Assembly (NCBI GenBank): GCA_050950165.1
Contig: JBMNHC010000001.1
Location: 325,724 to 389,723, forward strand
Length of the DNA stretch: 64,000 bases
Direction: 5' to 3'
DNA from: Candidatus Dojkabacteria bacterium
GTDB lineage: Bacteria > Patescibacteriota > Dojkabacteria > SC72
Position numbers and translations under genes: made by a program. Shown here in pieces: positions 18,810 through 62,325 of the stretch (the first letter of the stretch is position 1; each line of letters starts with the position of its first letter). The notes under the pieces were generated by a model. The model was not told the DNA's origin. It saw nothing but the letters and a program-made list of their open reading frames with translations, and searched no databases.

Positions 18810-19358
18810 ATGGAAAACAAAGAGATAAAAGTACCTCCAATATTAAAAAATAAATGGATCTGGGCAATAGTGGTGGTAATTGCTGTTCTGATTATAGTGA
18901 TGAGTCTAACAGGTGAAGGTACTTCTGAGACAGGAGGAGTAGAAGAGAGTACCTCAAAAAACTCTGCAGATCAAAAGATATTTAATGACCAATTTGATAA
19001 TCTATGTGATAAGATAACAGGCTTGTATAGCTTAACAGGTACTGTCACTTGTCAAGATGATACGACTTGGACAAAGAACCATGAAATAAATCCAGAAGGA
19101 TTCCCTTATGAATATCGAGATATTAATGTAGATTTTGGTGAAGAAATTTCATACGAGATTAAGGTTGTTAGAAATCCAGACAATATTGAATACTTCAGAG
19201 AACACTATACTTGTAAAGAAATTAATGCTGGTTCTGGAAGCTGTATTGTTGATTTAGCTAAAGACAATATCATCTATTCAATAATTTTTTACAATCAAGA
19301 TGACCAAAAGGAGATTACTGAACTATCTGATGGACTAAAAACTATCCTCTCCAACTAG
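18810..19358 (+). CDS. Secreted or N-terminally anchored hypothetical protein
   Basis: N-terminal TM WIWAIVVVIAVLIIVMSL followed by a Cys-containing extracellular domain. Confidence 0.4.
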   Translation: MENKEIKVPPILKNKWIWAIVVVIAVLIIVMSLTGEGTSETGGVEESTSKNSADQKIFNDQFDNLCDKITGLYSLTGTVTCQDDTTWTKNHEINPEGFPYEYRDINVDFGEEISYEIKVVRNPDNIEYFREHYTCKEINAGSGSCIVDLAKDNIIYSIIFYNQDDQKEITELSDGLKTILSN

Positions 19359-19359
19359 T

Positions 19360-20067
19360 TTATAGTAATTCCATACTGTTGAAAATAGTACTTAAGGTCT
19401 TCAATTCTTCTGCAGTAGAACCTTCTTCAATTACTTGAATATATTTAGCCTCGTACTCTTTATTTAACTCTCCGTTTATATAAACCTTGTACGAAGGCCC
19501 TTGCTTAGAGAAAGAGAGTAGGTAACTCTCCTCGTTTACAAAGTAATTGCTATCTTCTGTGTTTTCATTAATCATAAGTACTCCATTTATACACCTAGCT
19601 TTTGTGCCAAAGAGAGATATATCTGAGTATTCACCTTCCTTAATTTCAATCTTCTCATATCCTTTTCCTTCCATCTCTTGTAAATACTCAGGACTAGAAT
19701 CAGGAAAAGCCTTAAACGAAGTAATTAGAGCTCCATAATCAGTAATAGCATAGATAGAAGATATTAATTTCTCATTGTTTAAGATATCTATTCTTGCTAA
19801 ACCCCGAATCTCTTCACTTTCATCTGCTACAGAATTAAAACGCCCGTAATAGCTCTCTGTTTTAATCTTCCAACCCTCTGGCAACTCTGCCTTTGCTTGA
19901 GATATTAAGTCTTTCCTTACAAAAATCTTTACTCCTTCCTCTCCATTTGTTTCTTGTGTATAGAATGGGTTTATACTCAACAGTACGGGAGAGGTGTACA
20001 GGAATACTGAAGTTAGAAGAAGTAAGAAAAGTGACAGTAATACATAAAACAGAGGCTTTCTTTTCAT
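19360..20067 (-). CDS. Secreted or anchored hypothetical protein; paralog of 20090-20887
   Basis: N-terminal signal/TM. Shares the PEGWKIK..YYG block with the neighbouring ORF. Confidence 0.45.
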   Translation of the reverse strand: MKRKPLFYVLLSLFLLLLTSVFLYTSPVLLSINPFYTQETNGEEGVKIFVRKDLISQAKAELPEGWKIKTESYYGRFNSVADESEEIRGLARIDILNNEKLISSIYAITDYGALITSFKAFPDSSPEYLQEMEGKGYEKIEIKEGEYSDISLFGTKARCINGVLMINENTEDSNYFVNEESYLLSFSKQGPSYKVYINGELNKEYEAKYIQVIEEGSTAEELKTLSTIFNSMELL

Positions 20068-20089
20068 AACTACTCTATAAAAATTTAAT

Positions 20090-20887
20090 TTATTTTAATT
20101 TCATACTCTTAAGTATCTCGTCTACAACTACCAGATCCCCCTCTGTTGCATCTGATGTTGAACCGAAGAAATATGCCTCACCTACATCTGTAGAATCCTG
20201 TGTAAAGCTAACCCCCTCTATAGAGATGACCCCTGGCATACAAGAAACTTCAAAATATTCATTACCATCTGTTTCATCTAAGTAGTACATAACTCCAACC
20301 CTTCTAAGTCTCTTTCCTAACCATTTTAGTTCTACATATTTAGAATTTGAGTAGTCAGTAATTTTTATCTCATCTTCTAGTTGATCTGCTGCAGATTGAC
20401 TCTTTTGTAAATGTTCAGGATTAAAATCAGAAAACTTTATATACGATGGACACCCTACAAACCCAATACCAGAAATTGCTCTTAATGAGAATACAGAAGT
20501 TTCTCCATTGAATATCTTTAATCCTGTTAAACCTGTATATTTAACTCCTTCTGCCAGTGTCTCTGAACCTTCTCCGTCATAGTATTCTTTAATATTCCAA
20601 CCTTCTGGCATTGTTGCTGTAAAAGTTTTACCTTTAAAAGAGATCTCTTTTACTTTAGCCTTGTTCTCCTGAGGTTGTTCTTCATCTATTTCTATAGTAG
20701 ATACACCCTCTTTCTTAAAAATGTCTACAGCATATTGTTTGTATGCCCAAACACCAAGAATTGCTGCAAGAAGAAGAATTGAGAAGATTACTCCTAATAC
20801 AAAAAAGAGAGTTTTGTTACTCTCCTTTTTGGGAGTAGGCGATTCTGTATGAGTGTTTTGTACAGAAGAGGCATTTGTGTTTTCCAT
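20090..20887 (-). CDS. N-terminally anchored hypothetical protein; paralog of 19360-20067
   Basis: TM LFFVLGVIFSILLLAAILGVWAY. The PEGWNIKEYYDG block parallels the neighbour. Confidence 0.45.
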   Translation of the reverse strand: MENTNASSVQNTHTESPTPKKESNKTLFFVLGVIFSILLLAAILGVWAYKQYAVDIFKKEGVSTIEIDEEQPQENKAKVKEISFKGKTFTATMPEGWNIKEYYDGEGSETLAEGVKYTGLTGLKIFNGETSVFSLRAISGIGFVGCPSYIKFSDFNPEHLQKSQSAADQLEDEIKITDYSNSKYVELKWLGKRLRRVGVMYYLDETDGNEYFEVSCMPGVISIEGVSFTQDSTDVGEAYFFGSTSDATEGDLVVVDEILKSMKLK

Positions 20888-20950
20888 AAGTACTTAAATA
20901 CAAAGATTATACATATTAAACCTACATTAGTATTTAGCAGAAATCAATAG

Positions 20951-21244
20951 CTAGAGAGGGGTAGGGCAGAGAGTCCCATCACTGCAATATTTAGTATTTT
21001 CTTCTGTACAGGTTTTCTCGCTACATACACTCTCTCCACTATGGCAGAAGCATATATTACATCCATCAGTAGCTTCATATATTTCTTTGTCTGCATATGC
21101 CCATCCGTTGTACTCACATCTTTTTGGTTCTATGAATATTTCTGTATTTTCTGTGTAGAAGATATAGCTGACTAAGCCTACGATGATAGTGCCTAGTGTA
21201 ATGGTTAGTCCTGTTAGAAAGTCTACTTTCTTTTCTATTTCCAT
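20951..21244 (-). CDS. Small anchored Cys-rich protein (97 aa; about 10 Cys in the last 55 aa)
   Basis: N-terminal TM, then CEYNGWAY...CNICFCHSGESVCSEKTCTEENTKYCSDGTLCP. Confidence 0.4.
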   Translation of the reverse strand: MEIEKKVDFLTGLTITLGTIIVGLVSYIFYTENTEIFIEPKRCEYNGWAYADKEIYEATDGCNICFCHSGESVCSEKTCTEENTKYCSDGTLCPTPL

Positions 21245-21331
21245 ATGTAAATATACAATATGGACAAAGATTGTACTAGAGAGGAGAGTTCTTAGATAGA
21301 CAAAGTATTTTACATTTCGTATATTTTAGAA

Positions 21332-21589
21332 ATGAAAATAACTATTTTTAAAAGAGAAAGTGACGGTGTAAAAGATATTAAGGAATTTGAAGTGAATTTT
21401 CTAGTACGATATTTTAAAGAGTTAAGTAAAAAAGACGAGGAGAAGATATATAGGGTTGTGAGGATAATAGATTCTTTAGGAAATGATGATATTGAAGAAA
21501 CTAGTGATAAAGATTATAGATTTCAAACAGATAATGATGAAGGAGAAAATCTGTTAGATGGCGTAGTTGTTAAAGGGGGTTCTGAATAA
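21332..21589 (+). CDS. Hypothetical acidic protein (85 aa)
   Basis: ORF only. Confidence 0.25.
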   Translation: MKITIFKRESDGVKDIKEFEVNFLVRYFKELSKKDEEKIYRVVRIIDSLGNDDIEETSDKDYRFQTDNDEGENLLDGVVVKGGSE

Positions 21590-21703: not shown

Positions 21704-22963
21704 CTAAATAGCTCTAGAGAGATTTACCTCATGAGCATATCCGCATGGTTTAAGACAAGTGTAATCGGGGAATGCACATCTGGGTTTCCCTAGATATTGG
21801 GATAAGTATGATTGTAGTTCTCCCTGAGCTACTGTGCAGTATTTCTTAAGTGTTATGATAGTTCTGCACATTATCTCTGGCATTGCATTGGTGCAAAGCC
21901 TCTCTTTAGATTTAAGCAGGAAATTCTCTAGCGTTCCCTGCTCCAAAATTTTTACTAGTTGTCCTTGTGGGTAGAGTTCTTTAACTTTCTCTATATCACT
22001 AAGCCAGAGGTTCATATACTCTGGGAAGAGAAATAAAATAGTGGGAACAAAAACTTTGAATTCGTGGGGAATAAAGATTTGGTAATCTAAAGTCCGGTGT
22101 CGGTGAGCTTGCGCTAATAGTGCAAAGCTACCGTAGTAATTTGTTGAGTATGACAGGGAGAAATGTTCTTCCCATCTCCTTTTCTCTTCCTCTGTTGCGA
22201 AGAGAGACAGTCTCCTCTCTTTTTCATTTCTTTGCAAACGTGGCTCGAGAAGATTTAACATCTTAAGTTGCTCGATAAACTCCTTGATATAAGGAGTTAG
22301 TCTTGCACAGAGAGGGTGTTCTGTCCACTTCAGATAGTCCTTTAACCATCCTACAATCCTGTTAAGTTGCCCCAGAGGGACAGTGTAGATTAAGTTCGTA
22401 GGAACGAAAATAGAAATAAAATATCGAGCATTTTCCATTGCAAGTTTTTCAATTTTACTAGGAGTAAACCGGTCTGGATATCTTTGTTTAATCAAAACTC
22501 CCAGAATAGTGATCCACTTGTTGTATAGTTCAGCCTCGATGGTGCTAACCGCCGATGTATCTATTTTCGTGTACCGGGCTGACCTTTCACTTGTTGTGTA
22601 CTGATGTTCGTTATTCAGTACCATTGCCAAGATTTTTGGCATATTACAGATATTTAAAGAAATTTGGACATGGTCATAGAGACTATGGTGTCCAGAATCC
22701 AGAGTCAAGTTAACTCTTTTTTCTGTTTTCTTTGGGTCTTCGCCCTGCAACTTTTCATAGTCCTCTGGACTATAACAGATTCCCCCAATTCGACCGCAGG
22801 TCCTAATAGCAGTGTTTAGATCAAAGGTCCCATCGTTCCTCAAGAAGTTTGTTGTCGGTAGAAGGGATACAGTAATCTTGTTATTCATTTTTCCTCCAAA
22901 AGTTTGTTTTGTGATGTGCCTATTACTTCTATTGTTAATGAGCTGGTATTTAAACCAGGACAT
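21704..22963 (-). CDS. ThyX-like (flavin-dependent thymidylate synthase fold) protein with a divergent active-site motif and a C-terminal extension
   Basis: SGHHSLYDHVQISL parallels the ThyX GHETPFEH block. NNEHQYTTSERSARY parallels RHRIASYNELSGRY, but RHR is replaced by NEH. 419 aa versus about 220-250 for ThyX. The start may be the internal M at about 22888. Confidence 0.4.
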   Translation of the reverse strand: MSWFKYQLINNRSNRHITKQTFGGKMNNKITVSLLPTTNFLRNDGTFDLNTAIRTCGRIGGICYSPEDYEKLQGEDPKKTEKRVNLTLDSGHHSLYDHVQISLNICNMPKILAMVLNNEHQYTTSERSARYTKIDTSAVSTIEAELYNKWITILGVLIKQRYPDRFTPSKIEKLAMENARYFISIFVPTNLIYTVPLGQLNRIVGWLKDYLKWTEHPLCARLTPYIKEFIEQLKMLNLLEPRLQRNEKERRLSLFATEEEKRRWEEHFSLSYSTNYYGSFALLAQAHRHRTLDYQIFIPHEFKVFVPTILFLFPEYMNLWLSDIEKVKELYPQGQLVKILEQGTLENFLLKSKERLCTNAMPEIMCRTIITLKKYCTVAQGELQSYLSQYLGKPRCAFPDYTCLKPCGYAHEVNLSRAI

Positions 22964-23149
22964 TGGGGCTATTATATTACTAATATTTTTATATTACAAA
23001 TCTACTTGTTACAGACAGCTTTTCTCATATTCAGCACAAGACGACACATTTATTTCTGGATTTGATATACTTAAACACTCCCCATAATAACTTCTTAATT
23101 TCAAACGATGACAGAGATTCCAGAGTTAGGGAAATAATCTAAGGAAATT

Positions 23150-28597: not shown

Positions 28598-28960
28598 ATG
28601 AAAAATACCTTAGCAAAAATATCAAGTGGAGTAGTTGTAGCTTATGTAGCTTTTTCTGGTTTTATAGTAAAAGCTTTTGCTCAGAAGAAAGCATCTGAAT
28701 GGTTAAATATGGGTATTGATGGAGTTGATAAGGAGTTGGATAGTTGGATTGTAACTATGCTTAACTGGGGTATTGGTTTAGCAGCATTAGTTGCAGTAGT
28801 TATGTTAATTGCAGCTGGATATCTATATATCACTGCAAGTGGTGAAGAGGCTAAGATAGAGAAAGCAACAAAGACATTAACATTTGCAATTATAGGTTTA
28901 GTTGTGTGTTTCATTGCAGTAATGTTAGTGCAGTTTGTAGTTAATAATGTGTTAAAGTAA
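28598..28960 (+). CDS. VirB2/TrbC-like two-helix pilin paralog 3 (cleavable signal peptide)
   Basis: Signal ...VKAFA|QKK, then LAALVAVVMLIAAGYLYITASGEEAKIEKATKTLTFAIIGLVVCFIAVMLV. Confidence 0.5.
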   Translation: MKNTLAKISSGVVVAYVAFSGFIVKAFAQKKASEWLNMGIDGVDKELDSWIVTMLNWGIGLAALVAVVMLIAAGYLYITASGEEAKIEKATKTLTFAIIGLVVCFIAVMLVQFVVNNVLK

Positions 28961-35481: not shown

Positions 35482-38001
35482 ATGAAATCATATATATTTA
35501 GTCAAATAGGGCCGGTTCCTTCCAAAAAAGATGAGGAGGTAATAGTTGGTAATTCTACTCAATACCCAAAGGATTCGTATGGAGAGAGTAGTGGCTTTAG
35601 TATAAATATCCCATGGGGATGGATTTTAGGATTGTTGGTATTTTTAGGAATATGTGTTCTTCTTGTTCTAAAAGTAAGAAAGAGACTACTTCAGAGGGAT
35701 AGAGATGATAAAGCTAAGGAGTGGGTACTCTACGAAGTAAGAGTTCCTAGGGGTAATGAGACAGAGATTGGTGTTGCAGAGAAGATGTTTGCTAATCTTG
35801 TTGGTATCGGCGGTAAAGGTAAGGGTATTGCGGAGAAATTTACAGTAAGTAACAATATTAGTTTTGAGATAATGGCAGAACCAGGTGCAATTAGGTTCTT
35901 TGTATATACTCCTCAAAAGTTAGCAGATTTGGTAGAGAAACAGATTCTCGGTTCATACCAAGATGCAGAGGTTAAGAAGGCAGATGATTATAATATTTTT
36001 AATAAGGATTCTAAAGTCGTATTTGCTAGACTAAAATTAGATGATGAACCGTACTGTCCAATTAAAGTCTTTGAAGATTTTACTGGTGACCCTCTTGCAA
36101 ATGTTTTAAGTACCCTAAGTAAGATGTCTGAAGGAGAGGGAGCTATGATTCAGATCTTAGTCTCTCCTACGGATAATAAATGGCAGAAAAATGGAGCTAG
36201 TTTTGTTAAAAAGGTAGAGAACAACAACAGTGATCCTGAGAAGAAAAAGATGAATGTTAGTCAGGAGAAGCTACAAGGTATTAGTAAGAAGGTTGCAAAG
36301 AATGGTTTTAATGTAGATATTAGAATTGTTACATCTGCATCAAATGAATCTTTAGCAAAGATGCATTTGGATAATATAATTGGAGCTTTTGATCAATTTA
36401 GTAATCCTGGGATAAATAGGTTTAAGAAAGTAGATATAAAGGGGAAAGCTAAAGAGAGAGAGTTTATGTTTGATGTAATATACAGACGAAGTATATTGGA
36501 GGGAGGTGCAACATTGAATGTAGAAGAGCTTGCTACCATATATCATTTTCCTAACAAAGATATTACTACTCCAAATATTAACTGGTTGTTGGCAAGAGAA
36601 GTGTTGGCGGATAATAGTATTAGTTCGGATATTAATTCTAAGGATACAGTATGGGTAGGTAATAACATATTTAGAGATAAAGTAAAGGCTATATGTTTTA
36701 GAAGAGATGATAGAAGAAGGCATACCTACATATTAGGTCAAACTGGTACTGGTAAGTCTTGGTTGCTTGTCAGAATGATAGTTCAGGATATATACAATGG
36801 TGATGGTGTCTGTTTTATAGATCCACACGGGCAAACGGCAGAGATGGTTTTAGAGCGTATTCCTCCTGAGAGAGTAGAGGATGTTATATATTTTAATGCT
36901 GCAGATTTTGAAAGACCTTTCGGTTTAAACATTATGGAGTACTACAATGAGCAGCATATGCATCAGATAGTTAATAGCTTCATAGGGTTATTGATTCGTC
37001 TTTTTGACCCTCATAATCAAGGTTATGTTGGGCCTATGATGCAACAGGCTGTTAGAAATGCAATGTTAACAGCTATGAGTGAGAAAGGCTCTACATTGAT
37101 AGAGGTAGTTAGAATATTGCAAGATGAGAAATGGGTTCAGGAGAAATGGTTACCACTAATTAAGGATGAGTTAGTACGCAGGTATTGGGTAGACCAGGTT
37201 GCTAAAACAGATCAAAAGACAAAATCAGAGAGTTTAGGCTACTTCATTTCCAAATTTGATAAGTTTACAACTAACTTAGCTATTAGAAATATAATAGGGC
37301 AATCTGAGTCATCATTCGATTTTAGAGAAATTATGGACCAAGGTAAAATATTAGTAGTCAATCTTGCTAAAGGTTTGCTTGGTGAAGAGAATATGTCTTT
37401 TTTGGGATTACTTTTAGTACAGAAGATATTGGCTGCAGCTCTAAGTAGAGAGAATATTCCTGAGGATCAAAGAAGAGACTTCTTCTTCTATGCTGATGAG
37501 TTTCAAAACTTTGCAACAGACGAGTTTATGTCAATACTTTCTGAAGCAAGAAAGTATAAATTAAACCTAACTCTTGCTCATCAATATATTGGTCAATTAC
37601 CAGAAAATATTAAGAATGCTGTTTTCGGTAATGTAGGATCTCTTTTTATCGCTAGGTGTGGTACTGAGGATGCAACATTTTTAGAACCACAGTTTGAGTC
37701 ATATGTAACAGCTTCTGACTTAATAAATCAGGCTATGGCTCATTACTATGTAAAGATGTTAAACAAAGGAGTGTATCAGAGTCCATTTTCGTTAAATACA
37801 CTATACGGTCCTAAGTTCCCAGAGAGTGGTTTTGATATGCCAACTAATTCAGAGGTTGCTCGAATTATTAAAGAGATGTCTAGACTTAAGTATGGTAGAG
37901 ATGTAAATATTGTAAATTTGGATATTAACAAACGATCAGAATTAGAGAAGAAAGAAGAACCTGCTACAAATAGTGATGCGTTTCCTCCTTTAGGCATTTA
38001 G
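35482..38001 (+). CDS. Type IV secretion coupling-protein-like ATPase (VirD4/TraD/TrwB family) with an N-terminal TM and extra N-domain
   Basis: RRHTYILGQTGTGKSWLL...CFIDPHGQTAE is the T4CP Walker A/DPKG-type block. FFFYADEFQNF...LTLAHQYIGQLPENIKNAVFGNVGSLFIARCG corresponds to the Walker B/TraG_C region. TM WGWILGLLVFLGICVLLVL. Confidence 0.65.
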   Translation: MKSYIFSQIGPVPSKKDEEVIVGNSTQYPKDSYGESSGFSINIPWGWILGLLVFLGICVLLVLKVRKRLLQRDRDDKAKEWVLYEVRVPRGNETEIGVAEKMFANLVGIGGKGKGIAEKFTVSNNISFEIMAEPGAIRFFVYTPQKLADLVEKQILGSYQDAEVKKADDYNIFNKDSKVVFARLKLDDEPYCPIKVFEDFTGDPLANVLSTLSKMSEGEGAMIQILVSPTDNKWQKNGASFVKKVENNNSDPEKKKMNVSQEKLQGISKKVAKNGFNVDIRIVTSASNESLAKMHLDNIIGAFDQFSNPGINRFKKVDIKGKAKEREFMFDVIYRRSILEGGATLNVEELATIYHFPNKDITTPNINWLLAREVLADNSISSDINSKDTVWVGNNIFRDKVKAICFRRDDRRRHTYILGQTGTGKSWLLVRMIVQDIYNGDGVCFIDPHGQTAEMVLERIPPERVEDVIYFNAADFERPFGLNIMEYYNEQHMHQIVNSFIGLLIRLFDPHNQGYVGPMMQQAVRNAMLTAMSEKGSTLIEVVRILQDEKWVQEKWLPLIKDELVRRYWVDQVAKTDQKTKSESLGYFISKFDKFTTNLAIRNIIGQSESSFDFREIMDQGKILVVNLAKGLLGEENMSFLGLLLVQKILAAALSRENIPEDQRRDFFFYADEFQNFATDEFMSILSEARKYKLNLTLAHQYIGQLPENIKNAVFGNVGSLFIARCGTEDATFLEPQFESYVTASDLINQAMAHYYVKMLNKGVYQSPFSLNTLYGPKFPESGFDMPTNSEVARIIKEMSRLKYGRDVNIVNLDINKRSELEKKEEPATNSDAFPPLGI

Positions 38002-38052: not shown

Positions 38053-38126
38053 GGGAGTATAGCTCAGGTGGTTAGAGCGCGGTTCTTATAAAGCCGTGGT
38101 CGATGGTTCAACTCCATCTACTCCCA
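38053..38126 (+). tRNA. tRNA-Ile with unmodified-type UAU anticodon (TAT)
   Basis: GGGAGTA acceptor, D-arm GCTCAGGTGGTTAGAGC, anticodon stem CGGTT/AGCCG with loop CTTATAA, T-arm GATGGTTCAACTCCATC. Confidence 0.7.
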
Positions 38127-38137
38127 CTCTTTATATT

Positions 38138-39025
38138 TTAGAGATCTTTCAGACTCTTTTCTGCCTCTGGCTTGTTATTATCTATCAGATTGAGATATTT
38201 TTCTGTAGTAGAAAGTCTCTTGTGTCCTACTAGTTTGGATACTGTTACTAGACTCACACCATTTGCTAAGTGATGAGCTATGAATGTATTTCTTAAATCA
38301 TTAACCTTTGCATTTTTAATACCTGCTCTCTCAAATGCCTTATCTATTGTAGTTCTAATATTTCTAACTAGAAGAGGTCTACCATTCTTTGTGACATAGA
38401 GGGTCTCCTCTTCTGTCTCTGGCCTTATCTCAAGATATTCATCAATTGCTTTCTTTGCAGATTTATTAATAGGGACCTTTCTTGCGTGATGACTACCCTG
38501 GGCCTTTATGTATATATAGTTAATACCATCTTTAGTATTTCTTACATCATCTAAAGTAAGAGTAGCTAACTCACCAATTCTGATACCCGTTTGTAGTAAA
38601 AGCTCTACAATGGAGTAGAGTCTAATATCTACTCTACTAACATCTCTTAGTGCTCTATACTCCATCTCTGAAAGAACTCTAGGAGGTTTTGTCTCAAACT
38701 TAGGATGTGCTAACTTCTCTGCAGGATTATCTTTGATATGAGAATTCTCTAAAAGATATCTATAGAAAGTTCTTGTACTATTAATCTTTCTAGAGATACT
38801 TTTTGGAGTGTAGTTGTTGTCCTGTAAGTGTTTCTTATACGCCTCTAGATTATCTATTGTAGTTTGCGTCAACTTTGTAATTCCTTTAGAAGAAAAATAT
38901 GTAAGAAGTTGCTCTATATCTTTTGCATAAGCAATTACAGTGGCTTCAGAACGACCTTTATTTCTAAGTTCGTCAGTAAAGCTACTTTGTAAATTGGCAA
39001 ATTCAGGGTTTGTAATCTTTTCCAA
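38138..39025 (-). CDS. Tyrosine site-specific recombinase (XerC/XerD/phage-integrase family)
   Basis: R...H-x-x-R...Y catalytic pattern: GIRIGELATLTLDDV, HHARKVP, LRNTFIAHHLANG, LVGHKRLSTTEKY. It has an N-terminal SAM-like domain and is 295 aa. Confidence 0.8.
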   Translation of the reverse strand: MEKITNPEFANLQSSFTDELRNKGRSEATVIAYAKDIEQLLTYFSSKGITKLTQTTIDNLEAYKKHLQDNNYTPKSISRKINSTRTFYRYLLENSHIKDNPAEKLAHPKFETKPPRVLSEMEYRALRDVSRVDIRLYSIVELLLQTGIRIGELATLTLDDVRNTKDGINYIYIKAQGSHHARKVPINKSAKKAIDEYLEIRPETEEETLYVTKNGRPLLVRNIRTTIDKAFERAGIKNAKVNDLRNTFIAHHLANGVSLVTVSKLVGHKRLSTTEKYLNLIDNNKPEAEKSLKDL

Positions 39026-46027: not shown

Positions 46028-46399
46028 ATGGAGGAAAATCAGAAAGATATATCAATATGGTCGGTTCTCTCTAACATATTAGGATTCCTTTTTGGAGCTT
46101 TTCTAATATACAAAATCATTAATAGAAAGAGAGGTTTTGAGAAAACAGAAAAATTTATCCAAAGACCACCCATCGATGAAGTAAAGAAAGTAAAAAAGAT
46201 ATATCCAATCAATGAGAGACAATACAAGATATTGGCTACGATAAGTAAGAAAGGCACAATGACACCATCAGAGATATATGCACTTGAACCAAATCTCTCT
46301 ACTAGAACATTAAGAAGAGATATGGATGTGTTAGTAGAGCAAGGAGTGGTTAGACAAGAAGGTAGTACCAAATCGACTAAATACACATATATTGGATAA
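46028..46399 (+). CDS. Small membrane-anchored winged-helix (DeoR/MarR-like HTH) protein
   Basis: N-terminal TM plus C-terminal KKGTMTPSEIYALEPNLSTRTLRRDMDVLVEQGVV. Confidence 0.4.
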   Translation: MEENQKDISIWSVLSNILGFLFGAFLIYKIINRKRGFEKTEKFIQRPPIDEVKKVKKIYPINERQYKILATISKKGTMTPSEIYALEPNLSTRTLRRDMDVLVEQGVVRQEGSTKSTKYTYIG

Positions 46400-48209
46400 T
46401 ATGGAGTTCAACGAGGTAGCAAACATATTCGAACAGATAGAGAAGACAAGCTCTAGAAATGAAATAACTAGTATACTAGCAGATTTCTATAAAAAACTTA
46501 CCAAAGAGGAAGGGCAGATACTTTCCTACATGATATTGGGTAGGGTAGCTCCATTCTTTCTTGATAGTGAATTCAACTACTCTGAAAGAAGTCTTCTTAC
46601 ATTACTAAACAACTACAGTAAGTTAAATATTCCTAGCTTTGATATTAATGAGAAAAGGATAGAGTTAGGAGATATTGGAGATACAGTAAAAGAACTTGCT
46701 GAACAAGTAGGCTTTTCATCAAAGAAACTAAGTGTAGAGGAGATATATGATACTCTTTGGGGTATCATAAATATAGAGGGAACAGGCTCTGTAGAGAGAA
46801 AAAATAGTATTGTTTTAGAAACAATACAGAAACTTTCACCATTAGAATCAAAATACTTTGTAAGAATAATATGTGGTCAGTTAAGGTTTGGTATTAATTA
46901 TAAAACATTGTTAGATACCTTCTCTTTTGTAATATCTGGTAGTAAGAGTGTGAGAGAAGAGTTGGATAGAGCGTATGGTGTTAGTGCAGATATTGGATAT
47001 ATATATTCTGTAATTGCCAAAAAGAGTGAAAAGGAAGCAGTTGAAAGCCTAAAGGATGTTAAACTACAACCAGGTATACCAGTCTTAGCAAGATTAGTAG
47101 AGAGAGTAGGTAGTTTTGAAGAGACATTTGATAGGACTGGAGTTCCTGCATTGGTTCAACCTAAGTTTGATGGTTTGAGATGTCAGATTCATAAGTATAG
47201 GGAAGAGGATTTTGAGAGAAGAGAATATCTTTGGAAGAGATATATTCAGAAAGAGTCTGTTGGTTTGTTTGGTGTTGAGTCTGATAGTGTACAGGTAAAG
47301 CTTTTTACAAGGAATTTAGAGGATGTTACAAAGATGTTTCCAGAGGTTGTGGAATCTGCAAAGTTGGTTAAAGAGTCCTCCTTCATCTTAGATTCAGAGG
47401 CAATGGGGTTTAAAGATGGTAAGTTCTTACCTTTTCAGGAAACTATGCAGAGAAGAAGAAAATATGAGGTTGAGGACAGATCTAAGGATGTTCCTGTTAA
47501 GGCTATGGTTTTTGATATTCTGTATCTAAACGGAGAAGATTTAATAGATATGGATACAAAGGAGAGGGTAGGGGTTCTTGAGAAGATTGAATTTGGTGAT
47601 AGTTTAGAGAGATGTGAGACTAAGGAAGTAGGAGATTTGGATGCTTTAATGAATGTTTTTAATGAGAATGTAGAGAGAGGGCATGAAGGAGTTATTGCAA
47701 AGATGCAAACAGGTGGATATTTACCAGGTGTTAGAAACTATGATTGGATTAAGTTAAAGAAGAGTATGTTAGGTTCCTTAGTAGATACTGTGGATCTTGT
47801 TTGTGTTGGCTACTATCACGGTTCTGGAAGGAGATCAGGTTTGGGTGTTGGTGCAATATTAGGTGCTTTGTACAATGAAGAGACTGATAGTTATGAAGCA
47901 ATTTGTAAAGTTGGTACTGGTTTTAGTGATGAACAGCTAAGAAATATTAAGGAGCAGTTGGAATCTAAGGTAGAAGAAAGTCAGCCACAGAATGTGCTCT
48001 GTCCTGAGAATCTAAAACCTGATGTTTGGATATATCCAGAGGTTGTTTTTGCTGTTGAGGCAGATGAGATTACTAGAAAATTAGGAGAAGAAAATATTGG
48101 TGGGGGCCTTTCACTTAGGTTTCCTAGATTAGTAGAGTGGGATAGGGATAAAAGTGCTAATGATGCTACCAGGGTAAGCGAGTTAATCAGCATGTTTAAG
48201 ATGAAGTAA
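46392..48209 (+). CDS. ATP-dependent DNA ligase
   Basis: Motif I VQPKFDGLRCQIH (KxDG), motif IV EGVIAKM, motif V DWIKLKK, and a C-terminal OB domain. Overlaps the upstream ORF by 8 nt. Confidence 0.8.
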   Translation: MDNMEFNEVANIFEQIEKTSSRNEITSILADFYKKLTKEEGQILSYMILGRVAPFFLDSEFNYSERSLLTLLNNYSKLNIPSFDINEKRIELGDIGDTVKELAEQVGFSSKKLSVEEIYDTLWGIINIEGTGSVERKNSIVLETIQKLSPLESKYFVRIICGQLRFGINYKTLLDTFSFVISGSKSVREELDRAYGVSADIGYIYSVIAKKSEKEAVESLKDVKLQPGIPVLARLVERVGSFEETFDRTGVPALVQPKFDGLRCQIHKYREEDFERREYLWKRYIQKESVGLFGVESDSVQVKLFTRNLEDVTKMFPEVVESAKLVKESSFILDSEAMGFKDGKFLPFQETMQRRRKYEVEDRSKDVPVKAMVFDILYLNGEDLIDMDTKERVGVLEKIEFGDSLERCETKEVGDLDALMNVFNENVERGHEGVIAKMQTGGYLPGVRNYDWIKLKKSMLGSLVDTVDLVCVGYYHGSGRRSGLGVGAILGALYNEETDSYEAICKVGTGFSDEQLRNIKEQLESKVEESQPQNVLCPENLKPDVWIYPEVVFAVEADEITRKLGEENIGGGLSLRFPRLVEWDRDKSANDATRVSELISMFKMK

Positions 48210-50562: not shown

Positions 50563-54130
<3,568 letters not shown>

Positions 54131-54261
54131 ATATATTTTTACTATCTATTCGGTTTTGAGTGTACAAACACTCTTTTGCTCTTTAGAATTTAAAGTCCTG
54201 AAGATTACTGGTAGTAATATCAGTAGTCGTCAGGCAACAGATATTTATATCAGATTTTTGT

Positions 54262-54872: not shown

Positions 54873-55883
54873 ATGAAAGAATTTTTCTCTGTAGATGTAG
54901 AAGGAGGTGATCAAGTAGGAAAAGGAGATGTAGTTAAAAATCTCTCCTTGCAATTAGCTACTGAAGGCTACGATGTTTCTGTAGTATCTTTCCCCTGTTA
55001 TGCATCTCCAATTGGTAATGCAGTAAGAAGTGTTTTGAAGGAAGATATTTTTGACAACTTGGGATTAGACCCTAAAGAGTCTGTATCTTCTAAAATGGCT
55101 CTTTTTGCTTTGAATAGATTGGAGATATTAAACTACATTGTACAGGATAGAGAAGGTAAGGTATTTCTTTTTGACAGAGGACCTTTTAGTAATGCTTTAA
55201 CAATTGCATATGCTGTTAGTAAAGGATTAGATGGTGTGAATCAAGAAGAGCTTGTAGATATTGCTCTTTCTCTTGATTTTCTCTTTAGAAAAAATATGAA
55301 GGTAGATGAGTGTGTAATCAGGATATTTACTGAATCTAATAGCTGGTGTAGGAGTAGGGAAGATGGAGATTTGCATGAATCTAGAGAGGTTCAAGATATC
55401 AGTGATCTAATATATGGTATCTTCCAGAGCAAGATAGGGGGGGATTGGGTAGATATATTAAGTAAAGGTCGTGAAGGTTGGAGATCAAGAAAGGAGATAA
55501 TGGGGGATTGTTTAGAATTTATCAGAAAAAGAAACCAATTGAGCCCTGTGGGGCGTTCTAAGGAGCCAAAATATCTTTCGGTAGGTAAGGCTCTACAAAG
55601 TCTGTACAAGGGCTCTAGAATAGATTCTGTGGAGCTAAATTTGCTAGAAGAATCTTTAAAGCAAAATGAGAAGCAGGGGATGTATGAAGCATCATCTTTA
55701 ATATCTCAGGGTATAGCGAATTCTACCGAAGGGATAGAGTGGTATAATGAGGAGATTAGGGATGAGGTAAAAAGAATCTTAGATGAGCATATAGATATTG
55801 TGTCTCTTCTGGAGAAGATATATGGTGAAGAGTTTGTATATAAGTTTCTTAAATCTCTTAATACATGCGGAAAAAAGAATTAG
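54873..55883 (+). CDS. Thymidylate-kinase-like P-loop kinase-fold protein with a non-canonical P-loop (GGDQVGKGD) and a long C-terminal extension
   Basis: FSVDVEGGDQVGKGDVVKNLSLQLATEGYDVSVVSFP is collinear with the Tmk ExGxDGxGKTT...REP block. The DRG motif aligns with the Tmk DRH/Y motif. 336 aa. Confidence 0.35.
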   Translation: MKEFFSVDVEGGDQVGKGDVVKNLSLQLATEGYDVSVVSFPCYASPIGNAVRSVLKEDIFDNLGLDPKESVSSKMALFALNRLEILNYIVQDREGKVFLFDRGPFSNALTIAYAVSKGLDGVNQEELVDIALSLDFLFRKNMKVDECVIRIFTESNSWCRSREDGDLHESREVQDISDLIYGIFQSKIGGDWVDILSKGREGWRSRKEIMGDCLEFIRKRNQLSPVGRSKEPKYLSVGKALQSLYKGSRIDSVELNLLEESLKQNEKQGMYEASSLISQGIANSTEGIEWYNEEIRDEVKRILDEHIDIVSLLEKIYGEEFVYKFLKSLNTCGKKN

Positions 55884-56488
55884 CTTCTAGACTACTTCTT
55901 GAAGTCGAAAAAATATTCCCAAACGCTACTACAGAGTTAGCCAACTGGAAAACACCATTCCAGTTCTTAGTGTGTATAATTCTCTCTGCTCAAACTACAG
56001 ACAAGCAGGTCAACAAGGTTACCAAGAAACTGTTTAAAAAATATCCAACATCAAATGAACTCTCTAAAGCATCTCAAGAAGAACTGGCATATACCCTAGG
56101 GGGTATTAACTACTACAAGACTAAATCTAAACACCTAATATCGATGTCTACCATCTTAGAGAGAGAGTATAGTGGACAACCTCCTGTAAGCCTCTCTAAG
56201 CTCCTTAAACTACCAGGAGTAGGGTACAAGACAGCAAATGTATTTCTAAATGAGTACTATAAAGCTAACAAAGGTATTGCTGTAGATACTCATGTTCTTA
56301 GAGTAGCAAGAGCATATGGTCTAACAACCAATACAGACCCAACTAAAGTCTCTCATGACTTAGAAAAGCTCTATCCACAAAAGGATTGGCACAAGGTTAA
56401 TACAACCTTAGTCCTCTACGGAAGATATATTCTCAAAGCAAAGAAACCAGATATGAACAGAGTAGTTCTCAAAGAACACCTAGTCTAA
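55865..56488 (+). CDS. HhH-GPD DNA glycosylase (endonuclease III-like, no C-terminal FeS cluster)
   Basis: [12 protein letters not shown] (HhH with catalytic Lys) and [10 protein letters not shown] (Asp) are present. The Cx6Cx2Cx5C cluster is absent. Confidence 0.65.
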
Positions 56489-59400
56489 GATTTCATCTTT
56501 CTTTTAACCTTTATTTTCCTCTCTACCTTTTTCCTTTTGTATATACTGTATCCTAAAAGTATTGTTAGTAAAACAATTAAAGCAATTAACCAGTAAACAT
56601 AGCTTGGTGTAGTTATCTGCTCCAATTTTATTTTAATCTCTATCTCTTCCTCTCCATCATCAATTAGATGAATTTTCTTCTCAGCTCTATACCCATTGTA
56701 TGAAATAACCATTGTATGTAAACCAGTATCTAAATTCTCAAAATATACCTCTCCATTCTCATCAGTAATACCTGTTCTAAGATCGGAGTGCAACTCAACA
56801 GTCACACCTTTGAGAGCCCCCTGTGATTCATCATATATCTTTATTCTTAGACTCTTAGCCTGAGTAGTAGGTTTCTTATTAATTATTTCAGTTGTTTTCT
56901 CTTGTTCTTTTTCCCCAATATCAGGAATTATATATTTAGCAAATGGATTTCTTGGCTTTACAACAGGTCTTGGATCTAGTGGAGTAGGGATAATAGGTAT
57001 TGTTGGCTCTTGCCCACCTACAATATATGTAACACTGTTATCAGTAAATGTACTATCCTCATTTAGATTCCCAGCAAGGTCTTCAACAGTATTAGCAGGC
57101 AGAGAAAGTGATACTGTTTCTCCAGATATCATTCCAGTTACAATTGCAGTATATGTTGTACTGTTTACTTTTGTTAATTGTGATACAGTAGTCGTACTAC
57201 TTCCAGCTATTACTAAATCATCCTTTACAAAAGTATCTTCATTGATAGCTTCAGAGAATACAATTGTAAATTTAATTTCATCTTCATTAGTAGGATCAAC
57301 CTGATCATCAGCCTGATTTACTCTAACTGTTGGAGCGGTAGCATCGTATGTTATTGAGTCATTGGTAAAAGTACTATCCTCATTTAGATTACCAGCAAGA
57401 TCTTCAACAGTATTAGCAGGAATGATTACTGTTATAGTTTCTCCATCTGTAAGACCCGTTATCTCAACTTCATAATTTTGATCAGAATCCTCTATATTTG
57501 TAATTGAGTTTACAGAAGCTGAACTACTTATAGAACTAGATATAGCTATATCCTCACTTGTGAAAGTACCATTTTTAATCTTTTCAGAAAAAACAACTGT
57601 ATATTTAACAGAGTTAATATTAGTAGGATTAGCTTGAGTAATTGCTAGATTAACAGTGATGGTTGGAGCTATTGTATCTTTCAGTAAATTCTTAGTAAAT
57701 GTCCCTTTATTCCCAGCCTCATCTGTTTGAGATGCTTGAATAGAGATGTTTCCCTCTGTCAAAGAGGATAAATTAAGACTTTCACTCCATATTCCTTCTG
57801 CTTGACATTCTGTTTGAGATGTTTGACCTGCAATGTTGATTGTAATATCTCCATCATCTTCTGTACATGTTCCTTCTAAAGTATAGCTTGTTTTGTTAGA
57901 GCTATTAATTGGAGTATCACTTGTAATTGATACTACTGGGAGTATTCTATCAATTACAAAATCATCTTCCATTTTGGATGCGCTATTAGTAGCTTGATCA
58001 ATTGCATTAATAATTAAGTTACCGGATTTTGTAACTATCACTGTACAATTGACTTTTTTAGTTCCTGATTGGGTACACACTAAATTAGTTGGACCTCCCG
58101 TTGAACTTGAATTAATAGATACATCTTCTGCAAGAATACCATTGTTATCAGTTACTGTAATCACTATATTATCTATATTTTTATTACTAAGTTTGGTTGG
58201 AGGATTTATTGTTATAACAGGATTAGTTGCATCAACTGTTAATGCACTAGCAAAATCATATGTTTCTGTATTAAGGGCTGAATCTGTAACGATAACACTT
58301 ACAGTGTATGTTCCACTTGTTAGTTCTGGATCTATTACTCCTGCATCTAATTTCCAAGTTCCATTTCCATTGTTATCAGCACTATATGTTTTTCCTGCAA
58401 CCTTTACTTGTACTGTTGCGGTTGTATCATTTACAAGTCCTGTTAACTTAGGTGATTTTACTTTTGTAAGAAGTGTATCAAAATCAGCTACTGGAACTAT
58501 TGTATCTTTTGTAAGATTTTTTGTGTCATCTCCTATGTTTCCTACTGCGTCTGTTTGGGATACATAAACCTGAACTGTTCCATCTGGGTGGGTGGATAGA
58601 TTAAGCTCTGTACTCCATGTACCACCCGTTTGACACGCTGTGGTATGTGTTTGTTCGGCAATGATTGTCACAACACTACTATCACCCTCTGTACATGTTC
58701 CTGCTAGGGGGTAGTGTGCTTGGTTTGTTCTATTAATTGGAGCATCACTTGTTATCTGAACTACTGGTGGATCTGTATCTACTATAAAGCCTTCTACTGT
58801 TTTTGTAGCAGTATTTTTTGCTTTATCCTCTACATTTATTGTTAGGTTCCCTGACTTTACTATTGTTAATGTACAATTTACTATCTTTTCGTCTTGAGTG
58901 TCTGTTTGGCACTCAAAACCTTGCACCATTTCTTCTGAAGCTGGATCTACTGTTACTGCATTTGCAAATAGTTCAAGGTTATCTACCACCGATATGGTTA
59001 CATCTGTTATGTTTCCATTCTTTGCCATTGTTGGAGCATCTATTGTTATTTCTGGTTTTTTGTTATCAAAGAAATAGTATTGTGAGTTATATCCTATTGC
59101 ATTACTTGTTTGATCTCTCGCTGTTACTGTTACAAGGCCTGTATTTTGGATTCCTTCTATTCGACAGGTCACAGTTCCTACATATGGTTCATCGTTGATC
59201 GTGCCATGTGTATCTTCACAATGTACTATTTCTGCATCTACTGCTCCATCTCCTGAAAGTGTAATATCAACTATCTCATCTTCTGCATTTGGTGGGGTTA
59301 TGGTTACTTCTGTATTATTTATTGGTTGATTACTTATTATTGTTGGGGCGTTAAATGTTACCTCTGGTGGAAAGGAGATAGCTATTTCTGACATATTGTT

Positions 59401-62325
59401 TGTTTTATCATAGGCTTGGATATATACAGTATGTTGTGCTTCATGTGGGTCTAGGTATAATTTTTTCTCTATTATCTCTGTTGAATATTCTATATTTTCT
59501 TCTGTATATTCTTCTGGATATCCTTCTCCTCCATTATCTGCTCTATATCTTAGTATATAATTTAATACTCCTACTGGATCTACTGCCCTAAACTTTACTA
59601 ATGGGGCATCTGTACTATGTGGACTTGTTGTATCTACATTGGCTACTACAAATATAGGGCCTGATTCATCAACTACATATCCAGGTTCTGTTTTAGTTGA
59701 TACATTGCCTCCTCCATCTTCTGCTCTTATTGTTAAATCTCCTGAACCGGTTATCGTTATTGTACACTCTAAGGTTAAAGGAATTTCTGGATCATTTGAA
59801 TTGTTTACATATGGATAGTCTTGAGATTCTGTTATTGAATCTGCACTGGGGGTACATACTATATCTTTTGCTGTTGCAACACTCGTTGGATCTAATTCCA
59901 CTAAATTTATTGCAAACCCATCAGTTACTGTAAATGTTGTATCTGTTATTGGATCCCTTGATGTTTTCGTTTCGCTTGTAATTATTATTTCTGGTGGATC
60001 ATCATCTACATCTAATACTGTTATTATCAGTATTGCTTCTTCATATAATTCATCCTCATCTGTGGCCCTTACTCTAATTGAATATGTGTTATTTTCTACT
60101 CCGTCTCCTAAATCTGTTGGAATTTCATGATCTGGAGCTACTAAGAATACTAATAATCCGGTTGTTGGATTAAGTGCAAACTTCGCATTATCCTCACTCC
60201 CTTCACCTGATACTAGTGTATATATTACTTCAAGATTACTGTCTGAAAGTACTTCTCCTACTTCTGTTGTATTTTCATCTATTTCATCTTCTGATAAACG
60301 AATATTTTGTGGTGGACATTTCTTTCCAGCATCATTAATAGTCCATCTGCTTGGTTCTCCCATTAAAGTTGCTCTTGCTTCTTCTGCATAACAGTAATTT
60401 ACTCCTCTTGCATCAAAAGTTCTATTTGATAATACATTCTTTTTGCTCCATTCATTTAGCAGTTTATCGTAATTGTAATATTGCATATTGCTTCCACTAA
60501 GAAAACTTTCAAAAACTCCAACACTAGAAACATTCCAATTTGAGATATCTTGATTAAATGATTTTGCTCCAGAAAACATGCGAAGCATGTTTATAACAGC
60601 ACCTGTATTCCAATTTTCACCAAAAGGTTGATTAAACTGATAAGCATAATTAAACATAATATTCATATATTTTACTTTAACGGTGTTCCAATTTAGTGGT
60701 TTGGTACTAGCACCTGGTTCATCACCGTTATTAAAAGCACGGGCGTTTTGAAATATACCTGACATGTTTGTTACATTTCCTGTATTCCAATCACCAATAT
60801 ATTGATTAAACTTTCTGGCATTAAGAAACACGCCTTTCATATCAATTACTTCACCTGTAGTCCAATTTCCACCAAAAGGTTGATTAAATGAAGTAGCATC
60901 CTGAAACATATATGATATATATTTAACTTTGATGGTGTTCCAGTTTATTGGTTTGCTTTCATCCCCAGGCTCGGCACCATTGTTAAAAGCGGTAGCTCCT
61001 TTAAACATATATGCCATTGTTGTCACTTTCGCTGTATTCCAATTACCAATATTTTGGTTAAAAGCAGTAGCTCCACCAAACATGTTATACGTACTTTCAA
61101 CATTTCCTGTATTCCAGTTACTAATATCTTGGTTAAAATACTTAGTTCCTCTAAACATATCTGCCATTGCTGTCACATTCGCTGTTTTCCAATTAGGGCC
61201 AAACGGTTGATTAAAGTCTCTTGCTGCAAACATTCCATTCATAGTCTGAACTTTACTAGTATTCCAGTTTATAGGTTTAGTACTAGCACCTGGTTCATCA
61301 CCATTATTAAAAACAAGAGCTCCATTAAACATGTTTGCCATATAAACAACCGCGCCTGTATTCCATTCACCAATATATTGATTAAATGAAGTAGCATTAG
61401 AAAACATAGAAATCGTACGTTGAACTTTACCAGTATTCCAATCTAGTGGTTTAGTACTAGCGCCTGGTTCATCACCATTATTAAAAGCAGTAGCTCCTGC
61501 AAACATATTATCCATACTAGTAACCTCACCAGTTTTCCATTCACTAATATCTTGATTAAACGAAGTGGCTTGATAAAACATACCATTCATATTCTTGACA
61601 CTTTTTGTATCCCAACCACCAATATCTTGGTTAAATGAAGTGGCTTGATCGAACATACTCCCCATATTAGTAACATTTCCTGTATTCCAGTTACTGATGT
61701 CTTGGTTAAAAGAAGAAGCTCTAAAAAATGTACTATTCATATTCAGAACATTACTAGTATCCCAAGTATTCATTGACTCATGACCAGTAAAGTTTGTAGC
61801 ACTATGAAAAGTTTGATACATACTAGTTACTGCTGATAGATCAGGTTTATCACTAGCTGTTATCTGCATGTTTTTCATACCTATAAAAGCTGATGCAAAG
61901 CTTGACCATGGAATATGTCCCCACTGTTTTATCTCTTGTAGCTTAGCTCTCTCATCTACAGCTAAATCAGGAGCATAGAAGTGGAGTGGAGCTGTTGATC
62001 TAACACAAATATCATAGGTACCAGTCTCACCATAATCATAACTAACTTTATTACTAGAAACTGGTAGGAAATCGTCATTACAATGCCAAGAGACTTCGTA
62101 TTCATCCGTGGCGTTTTTTAGGAAGTTTAGAGTAACTTTAGTTGGCTCAGTAGCTCCCTCTACATTAGTTGTCCAACTAGTAACAAACAGATCAGAAGAG
62201 TAGGCATGGGTTGGAAAGTTCCTGTTCTTAATTAAAAAGGTTGTAAAACCAATAACTAACAAGAGAGTACTTAGTAAAAAGAGAATTTTCTTCAAATGTG
62301 AGTTTTTGGCAGTTTTTACAATCAT
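56485..62325 (-). CDS. Giant cell-surface protein (1,946 aa): N-terminal anchor/signal, about 14 DUF285 (BspA/Mycoplasma-type LRR) repeats, multiple Ig/cadherin-like domains, a CarboxypepD_reg-like domain, and a C-terminal TM with basic tail
   Basis: Repeated [18 protein letters not shown] units (aa about 200-600). Repeated about 100-aa beta-domains. ...[42 protein letters not shown]-terminus [36 protein letters not shown]. Confidence 0.75.

Follow-up and report, generated by a model that had tools for sequence, protein, structure and literature searches.

A probable flavin-dependent thymidylate synthase with its active-site residues divided between two fused ThyX-fold domains in a Dojkabacteria genome

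The flavin-dependent thymidylate synthase ThyX is the sole route to thymidylate in many bacteria and a drug target. In a 64,000-nucleotide (nt) stretch of a Candidatus Dojkabacteria genome (the window, meaning the whole stretch of DNA that was analysed), the open reading frame (ORF) at 21704-22963 on the minus strand encodes a ThyX-like protein in which the RHR motif, which binds the substrate in ThyX, is replaced by NEH. The question is whether such a protein can still make thymidylate. The first-pass annotation, made from the letters of the window, had suggested that it could be a catalytically altered ThyX paralog or a regulatory pseudo-enzyme, about twice as long as ThyX and with an extension of roughly 170 amino acids (aa). 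Here, we describe evidence that the RHR motif has been relocated within the chain, and we estimate a probability of about 70% that the gene encodes a functional flavin-dependent thymidylate synthase, built of two fused ThyX-fold domains that divide the active-site residues between them.

An ORF check of the window confirmed that the frame is intact, and its product is identical to the NCBI protein MGI6423341.1 encoded on a 724,554-bp contig of a Candidatus Dojkabacteria metagenome-assembled genome (MAG) and annotated as "FAD-dependent thymidylate synthase". The real start is probably the ATG at 22888, giving a protein of 394 aa, and the reading of 419 aa from 22963 is probably an over-extension. 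We placed the start at 22888 because of four features: a GGAGG sequence lies 4 nt upstream of it; the promoter-like site TTGTAA-17-TATAAT ends at 22971, merely 8 nt 5ʹ of the ATG of the long ORF; homologues are 386-400 aa long; and in a relative with 98% identity (L105) the upstream ATG falls in another frame owing to a 1-nt indel. Residues are numbered according to the 394-aa protein throughout.

The relationship to ThyX was detected at several levels. The only Pfam match of the protein was Thy1 (PF02511), which covered the N-terminal domain alone (E=1.8e-11, 44.7 bits against a gathering cutoff of 24.8), and there was no similarity to ThyA (PF00303). The score for the NCBIfam thyX equivalog TIGR02170 was 25.1 bits, below the cutoff of 87.9. 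When the family profile was compared with single ThyX proteins, the N-domain aligned with Thermotoga maritima ThyX at an hhalign probability of 93.8%, using a query sequence verified against PDB 1KQ4, and the alignment with Mycobacterium tuberculosis (Mtb) ThyX was ungapped with an offset of +2. Against PDB, the same profile yielded weak matches, confined to the N-domain; a single-sequence phmmer search of PDB found no ThyX, the only match being a spurious one to sphingomyelin synthase, and no match to the window protein was found in PHROGs. In the AlphaFold2 model (predicted local distance difference test score, pLDDT, 89.4; predicted template modelling score, pTM, 0.88), the secondary structure of the ThyX core, beta-alpha-beta-alpha-alpha-beta-alpha-alpha, occurs twice. 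Structural alignments of the full-length model covered 163-169 residues of 5CHP, 3AH5 and 4P5A, and those of the C-half model covered 122-125 residues of the same chains. Being longer than the C-half alignments to the same chains, the full-length alignments most likely belong to the N-domain, so that both halves appear from the predicted models to be ThyX folds. The ThyX-fold assignment of the first-pass annotation was thus borne out by the Pfam match, the predicted model and the hhalign alignments.

In the N-domain, N93-E94-H95 aligns exactly with R78-H79-R80 of T. maritima and R95-H96-R97 of Mtb ThyX. The second half of the motif is kept, with S103, R105 and Y106 corresponding to S88, R90 and Y91 of T. 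maritima and to S105, R107 and Y108 of Mtb ThyX. The replacement of RHR by NEH within a collinear core and the retention of the Ser at +11, both pointed out in the first-pass annotation, were therefore confirmed by both alignments. We then counted residues in 131 diverse representatives (31-49% identical to the query) plus the query, and all counts out of 132 refer to this set. Conservation was 132/132 for S103, 131/132 for R105 and 127/132 for Y106. Two further residues with counterparts in the dUMP site were also conserved in the N-domain, namely E101 (129/132), equivalent to T. maritima Glu86 and Mtb Gln103 with its subunit C role, and R155 (131/132), equivalent to T. maritima R147. RHR was never seen at the N-domain position, either in the 131 diverse relatives or in 116 Clostridia-type members. 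A sequencing error as the origin of NEH was considered and rejected on this ground. NEH as such is not conserved among the orthologues: near this position only N92 and N/S93 are fixed in the 131 relatives, and positions 94 and 95 vary. In the Firmicutes branch, N92-N93-E94 is invariant although the site is nominally dead.

The FAD-contacting arginine of the N-domain is conserved in a less direct way. R173, which corresponds to R165 of T. maritima and R190 of Mtb ThyX, is present in 106/132 sequences; the window lineage has G173 and carries an Arg instead at 177, one helical turn on. The two positions covary, as 84 representatives have R173 with Y177, and all 14 representatives without R173 have R177. 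This swap, as judged from the alignments, shows that the FAD-contacting Arg is kept under selection.

The C-terminal 170 aa are where the missing motif is found. RHR 263-265 lies in the family motif AQA[HQ]RHRT, and its three residues are conserved in 130, 127 and 129 of 132 sequences in the diverse set; among the 117 Clostridia-type sequences the counts are 117, 117 and 116. Further downstream, the family motif K-E-R-L-C-x2-A-Q-x-E-I is collinear with the ThyX helix L-R174-x4-A-Q-x-E-I, with conservation of 131/132 for R330, 131/132 for C332, 126/132 for Q336 and 131/132 for E338; the window lineage has M336-P337 in place of the family Q-L. Q260 is kept in the C-domain as well. The S-x-R-Y segment of this domain was lost by a 4-residue deletion after RHR, according to hhalign. 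Because a near-invariant RHR and the R330 helix occur in the C-terminal 170 aa, RHR has been relocated rather than lost. The protein is long, as the first-pass annotation had stated, but with 394 instead of 419 aa, and what had been taken for an extension is a second, predicted ThyX-like domain that carries RHR.

Three subunits of the homotetramer contribute to every active site of canonical ThyX, as seen in the Mtb and Helicobacter pylori structures (PMC6514825). Subunit a contributes RHR (Mtb 95-97) and Arg174 (Mtb Arg199); subunit b contributes the Ser/Thr of GHxS (Mtb Ser71) and Arg165 (Mtb Arg190), which contact FAD; and subunit c contributes Mtb Arg87, Glu86 (Mtb Gln103), Ser88, Arg90, Tyr91 and Arg147, which contact dUMP (PMC6514825). 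In the window protein, the a-type residues, Q260, R263-H264-R265, R330, Q336 (M in the window lineage) and E338, were found only in the C-domain. Only the N-domain had the residues of the other two types: S69 and R173 (shifted to R177) for b, and K85, E101, S103, R105, Y106 and R155 for c. The complete residue set of the three-subunit active site is therefore present in one polypeptide, split over two domains, with the R165 equivalent shifted to R177. The same split-motif pattern holds in the 116 Clostridia-type members. The coordinates of the features are listed in Table 1.

Table 1. Positions of the two-domain ThyX-like gene, its control elements and its motifs in the window
Feature	Coordinates	Strand	Basis
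Promoter-like TTGTAA-17-TATAAT (10/12 matches) upstream of the corrected start	22971..22999	-	Consensus scan, pattern match only
GGAGG ribosome-binding site, 4 nt 5ʹ of ATG 22888	22893..22897	-	Direct sequence reading
Probable corrected coding sequence of the two-domain ThyX-like protein, 394 aa + stop	21704..22888	-	Ribosome-binding site, promoter-like site, homologue lengths, relative L105
N-domain, aa 1-224: complete predicted ThyX fold, lacking both RHR and the R174 helix motif	22217..22888	-	
S69 of GHHS, counterpart of Mtb Ser71 (subunit B, FAD contact)	22682..22684	-	Alignment; 120 S + 10 T of 132
K85, equivalent to Mtb Arg87 (dUMP contact, subunit C)	22634..22636	-	131/132 conserved; ungapped Mtb alignment, offset +2
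N93-E94-H95 at the canonical RHR position	22604..22612	-	Profile alignments
S103-A-R105-Y106, kept part of the ThyX motif (its second half), with dUMP contacts and the Tyr lid	22571..22582	-	Conservation, Mtb mapping
G173-Q-L-N-R177; family R173 equivalent to T. maritima R165 / Mtb R190 (FAD contact)	22358..22372	-	hhalign mapping, covariation
C-domain, aa 225-364: truncated second predicted ThyX-fold domain (beta-alpha-RHR-beta ... beta-alpha-alpha) without the S-x-R-Y segment	21797..22216	-	
R263-H264-R265, relocated RHR motif	22094..22102	-	Conservation; aligned to T. maritima R78-R80
R330-L-C332-T-N-A-M-P-E338 helix, equivalent to T. maritima R174...A179-Q180-x-E182	21875..21901	-	hhalign mapping + conservation
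C-terminal tail, aa 365-394, with C371, C378, C382	21707..21796	-	Conservation; tail pLDDT 54-78

The residue partition suggests how such a protein might work. Two chains would associate into a pseudo-tetramer of four domains, in which each C-domain, acting as 'a', and both N-domains, acting as 'b' and 'c', would form one complete FAD/dUMP site. This arrangement would give two live sites, and the two sites with an N-domain as 'a' would be dead, with NEH in place of RHR. The dimer with two complete sites is proposed because it is what results when the partition is placed in the D2 geometry of ThyX; we infer the dimer and its two-site geometry from the partition. At the live sites, dUMP would be methylated to dTMP with methylene-tetrahydrofolate and reduced FAD, and the product would feed thymidylate kinase.

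A feature absent from canonical ThyX is a set of four cysteines in the C-domain and its tail. C332, which is two residues past R330, together with C371, C378 and C382 is near-invariant (126-132 of 132 in the diverse set and 117/117 in the Clostridia-type set), with the spacing C-x38-80-C-x5-6-C-x3-C. This conservation suggests that the four Cys form a putative, uncharacterised metal site for Zn or Fe-S. Three phage homologues (L094, L095 and L097; IMG/VR contigs of 45-247 kb) have no C371, a CC doublet at 332-333 (ERLCC) and a longer tail, which looks like the swapping of a metal ligand. By binding a metal next to R330, the four-Cys site would probably fix the C-terminal tail onto the active-site helix. 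A bolder proposal, possible but unlikely in our view, is that the four Cys ligate an iron-sulfur cluster through which FAD receives electrons from ferredoxin or flavodoxin. The family would then be an NAD(P)H-independent Fe-S class of thymidylate synthase of anaerobes, Candidate Phyla Radiation (CPR) bacteria and phages, with two active sites per pseudo-tetramer.

The protein belongs to a large family. Searches of a database clustered at 90% identity recovered 1181 proteins at E<=1e-3, and 396 clusters were counted at 50% identity and E<=1e-30. The family occurs in at least 555 GTDB species genomes. The hosts comprise Dojkabacteria and other CPR MAGs, uncultured gut Bacilli, "Tenericutes", Erysipelotrichaceae MAGs and Clostridia, and a further Clostridia branch has proteins of 450-555 aa. 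Seven large IMG/VR phage contigs (jumbo-phage) carry homologues with the motifs kept, two of which (L099 and L100) have an insertion of about 45 aa in the N-domain; their neighbours are mostly unknown genes. A tblastn search of GenBank phage genomes gave no match.

The gene context in the relatives points to the thymidylate cycle. The thymidylate kinase gene (tmk) abuts the ThyX-like gene on the same strand in 34 of 80 GTDB species loci, lying downstream in 30 and upstream in 4, and the same adjacency was observed in independent metagenome loci. The immediately upstream gene encodes serine hydroxymethyltransferase (glyA) in 5 loci and FolD in 4, and an NT5C deoxyribonucleotidase gene recurs upstream in 4. 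In one locus (L091) the order is folD-glyA-thyX-tmk, and in a Clostridiales locus a thymidine kinase gene lies two genes downstream. The ratio of nonsynonymous to synonymous substitution rates (dN/dS) was 0.08 against the closest relative, the one with 98% identity, indicating purifying selection. No canonical ThyA, ThyX or FolA was found in the window or in 105 related loci (874 kb), where the E. coli proteins served as tblastn queries for ThyA and FolA. Judged from the residue set, the gene context and the dN/dS, the gene product is probably a thymidylate synthase rather than a pseudo-enzyme. As an observation apart, a gene similar to F420-0:gamma-glutamyl ligase (PF01996) recurs in 4 loci of gut Bacilli (including L066, 1160-2353), upstream of the ThyX-like gene and on the other strand, which may reflect a link to folate or flavin polyglutamylation.

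Several points weigh against a divided but working synthase. By sequence, the C-domain is weakly linked to ThyX, with an hhalign E-value of 0.0036 and a probability of 9%; a HMMER search of PDB with the C-half profile returned no ThyX, only chance matches to isocitrate dehydrogenase; and the N-half and C-half profiles showed no mutual signal in hhalign with either narrow or broad alignments. The assignment of the C-domain thus draws on the predicted structure and the collinearity of motifs, and the case for duplication is one of structure, not of sequence. In the CPR loci, the window included, tmk, glyA and folD are not adjacent to the gene, and the sole Tmk-like ORF in the window is weak and 32 kb away. 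The window lineage also departs from the family at two conserved active-site positions (R173G and Q336M), and its nearest relative has S103L (L105, 2653-3837; codon TTA, not TCA), which reflects either true variation or a mistake in the assembly. The C-half alone did give weak matches to Pfam Thy1 in 13 of 20 members (best E=0.0023). In the CPR loci, the synteny of the gene with small hypothetical proteins is conserved.

Three other explanations were considered. The first is that the protein is an active ThyX-type methylase with another substrate or product, such as UMP/dUMP as for PolB, dCMP or a modified pyrimidine. We regard this as rather improbable, as the dUMP-contacting K85, E101, S103, R105, Y106, R155 and R330 are all canonical, the commonest neighbour is tmk, followed by the serine hydroxymethyltransferase and FolD genes, which together make up the thymidylate cycle, and no genes for nucleoside antibiotics or hypermodification were among the recurrent neighbours. 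The second keeps a working ThyX but changes its geometry, either to a monomer with one composite site or to a higher oligomer in which the dead sites are repurposed, for example for reductant binding. The pTM of 0.88 speaks for a fixed intramolecular arrangement of the domains, which may already juxtapose a- and c-type residues, and the invariance of N92-N93-E94 in Firmicutes would also fit a use for the nominally dead site. However, the conserved b-type residues share a domain type with the c-type ones, so that D2 geometry should then need a second chain, and we consider a different geometry quite improbable. Finally, that the gene encodes a catalytically dead, ThyX-derived pseudo-enzyme, nucleotide or flavin sensor or regulator with an accessory region as the remainder, as the first-pass annotation had it, might seem in keeping with NEH in the sole region recognised by Pfam, the low TIGR02170 score and the uncharacterised small membrane or secreted proteins around it in the window, but is very improbable given the near-invariant RHR and R174 equivalent in the C-domain, the full set of b- and c-type residues in the N-domain, the tight operons with tmk, glyA and folD in relatives, the phage copies and the dN/dS of 0.08.

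The window covers the region of the chromosomal origin in a CPR bacterium of low GC content and includes dnaA, dnaN, yidC, RNase J, an rRNA operon, transfer-messenger RNA (tmRNA) and smpB, together with polA, an ATP-dependent ligase, endonuclease IV and a UvrD/PD-(D/E)XK helicase-nuclease. The small ORFs at 18810-21589 adjoining the ThyX-like gene belong to no Pfam family, except for one weak VWC-like match, in agreement with the island of hypotheticals reported earlier. Among them, 20951-21244 encodes a small protein, rich in Cys and anchored in the membrane, that weakly resembles VWC and Pacifastin domains and is syntenic with the ThyX-like gene in a relative of 57% identity as well (L004, 6941-7207). 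On the other side, a type IV secretion pilin-like gene (28598-28960) and a gene for a VirD4/TraG-like coupling ATPase (35482-38001) were found, and similar type IV secretion genes flank the ThyX-like gene in L103 and L104. A tRNA-Ile gene with the anticodon TAT (38053-38127), an AUA decoder unusual in a bacterium, adjoins a tyrosine recombinase/integrase gene (38138-39025, minus strand), and the pair could be an integration site.

Further along the window, the DNA ligase gene (46392-48209), of the ATP-dependent archaeal/eukaryotic type, lies beside polA. The 23S rRNA match (50563-54135) spans 3573 nt compared to the 2925 nt of the model, indicating an insertion of about 650 nt; a 151-aa ORF (52462-52917, minus strand) lies inside the match, and no Rfam intron family reached its gathering score. 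The Tmk-like ORF mentioned above (54873-55883) encodes 336 aa, of which the first 116 barely pass as thymidylate kinase (29.8 bits, cutoff 27) and the other 220 are unassigned. Next come a minus-strand ORF of 1946 aa (56485-62325) and a gene (62362-63117) for a protein of 251 aa that has CarboxypepD_reg and Ig-like domains.

The three-subunit site of ThyX is hard to dissect because the four subunits are identical. If a functional synthase with a divided active site is the right reading, the natural fused form is a ready-made asymmetric ThyX, with the FAD/RHR side on one domain and the dUMP side on the other, in which roles could be assigned to single residues, half-of-sites behaviour could be tested and the transition from a homo- to a pseudo-hetero-oligomer could be studied. 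There is also a risk for annotation. Automated pipelines already label the family as FAD-dependent thymidylate synthase; databases show one Thy1 domain and an unassigned tail because sequence methods barely detect the second domain. As they see the RHR-less N-domain alone, curation by motif could wrongly call the family inactive, and the thymidylate autotrophy of CPR bacteria, of genome-reduced gut Bacilli and of jumbo phages would then be misjudged. Given the conserved Cys4 site, a metal-dependent form of ThyX chemistry is also possible.

In the accessible literature on ThyX and on thymidylate synthesis in CPR bacteria, we found no description of such a two-domain, split-motif architecture. 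The chlamydial ThyX, with a length of about 530 aa, might share the tandem architecture and could be a characterised relative. The chlamydial protein is reported to be too divergent for inclusion in ThyX phylogenies (PMC6171736) and to be active in NADPH-oxidase assays (PMC3498832). The family relatives of 513-555 aa come from Clostridia MAGs, and a 529-aa relative (P0207) was rejected as a candidate chlamydial ThyX because its own relatives are Clostridia MAGs. PolB, the UMP/dUMP C5-methylase of polyoxin biosynthesis (PDB 4P5A), is a single-domain protein with an intact motif encoded in an antibiotic cluster, whereas the fused family has two domains and housekeeping or thymidylate-cycle genes as neighbours, so that it does not conform to the PolB type. 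Compared with canonical ThyX (T. maritima TM0449, PDB 1O26; Mtb Rv2754c, PDB 2AF6/3GWC), the family has the same predicted fold in both halves, the same set of FAD- and dUMP-contacting residues and the same tmk, glyA and folD neighbourhood; it has the Pfam match, and it lacks the contiguous RHR-x7-S-x-R-Y signature in one domain as well as an equivalog-level score. In canonical ThyX, chains of about 220-250 aa with a contiguous RHR-x7-S-x-R-Y motif assemble into a homotetramer whose four sites are identical (PMC6514825), whereas in the fused protein the motif is split, with N-E-H-x7-S-x-R-Y in the N-domain and RHR without S-x-R-Y in the C-domain, the R174 helix occurs only in the C-domain and a Cys4 tail has been added.

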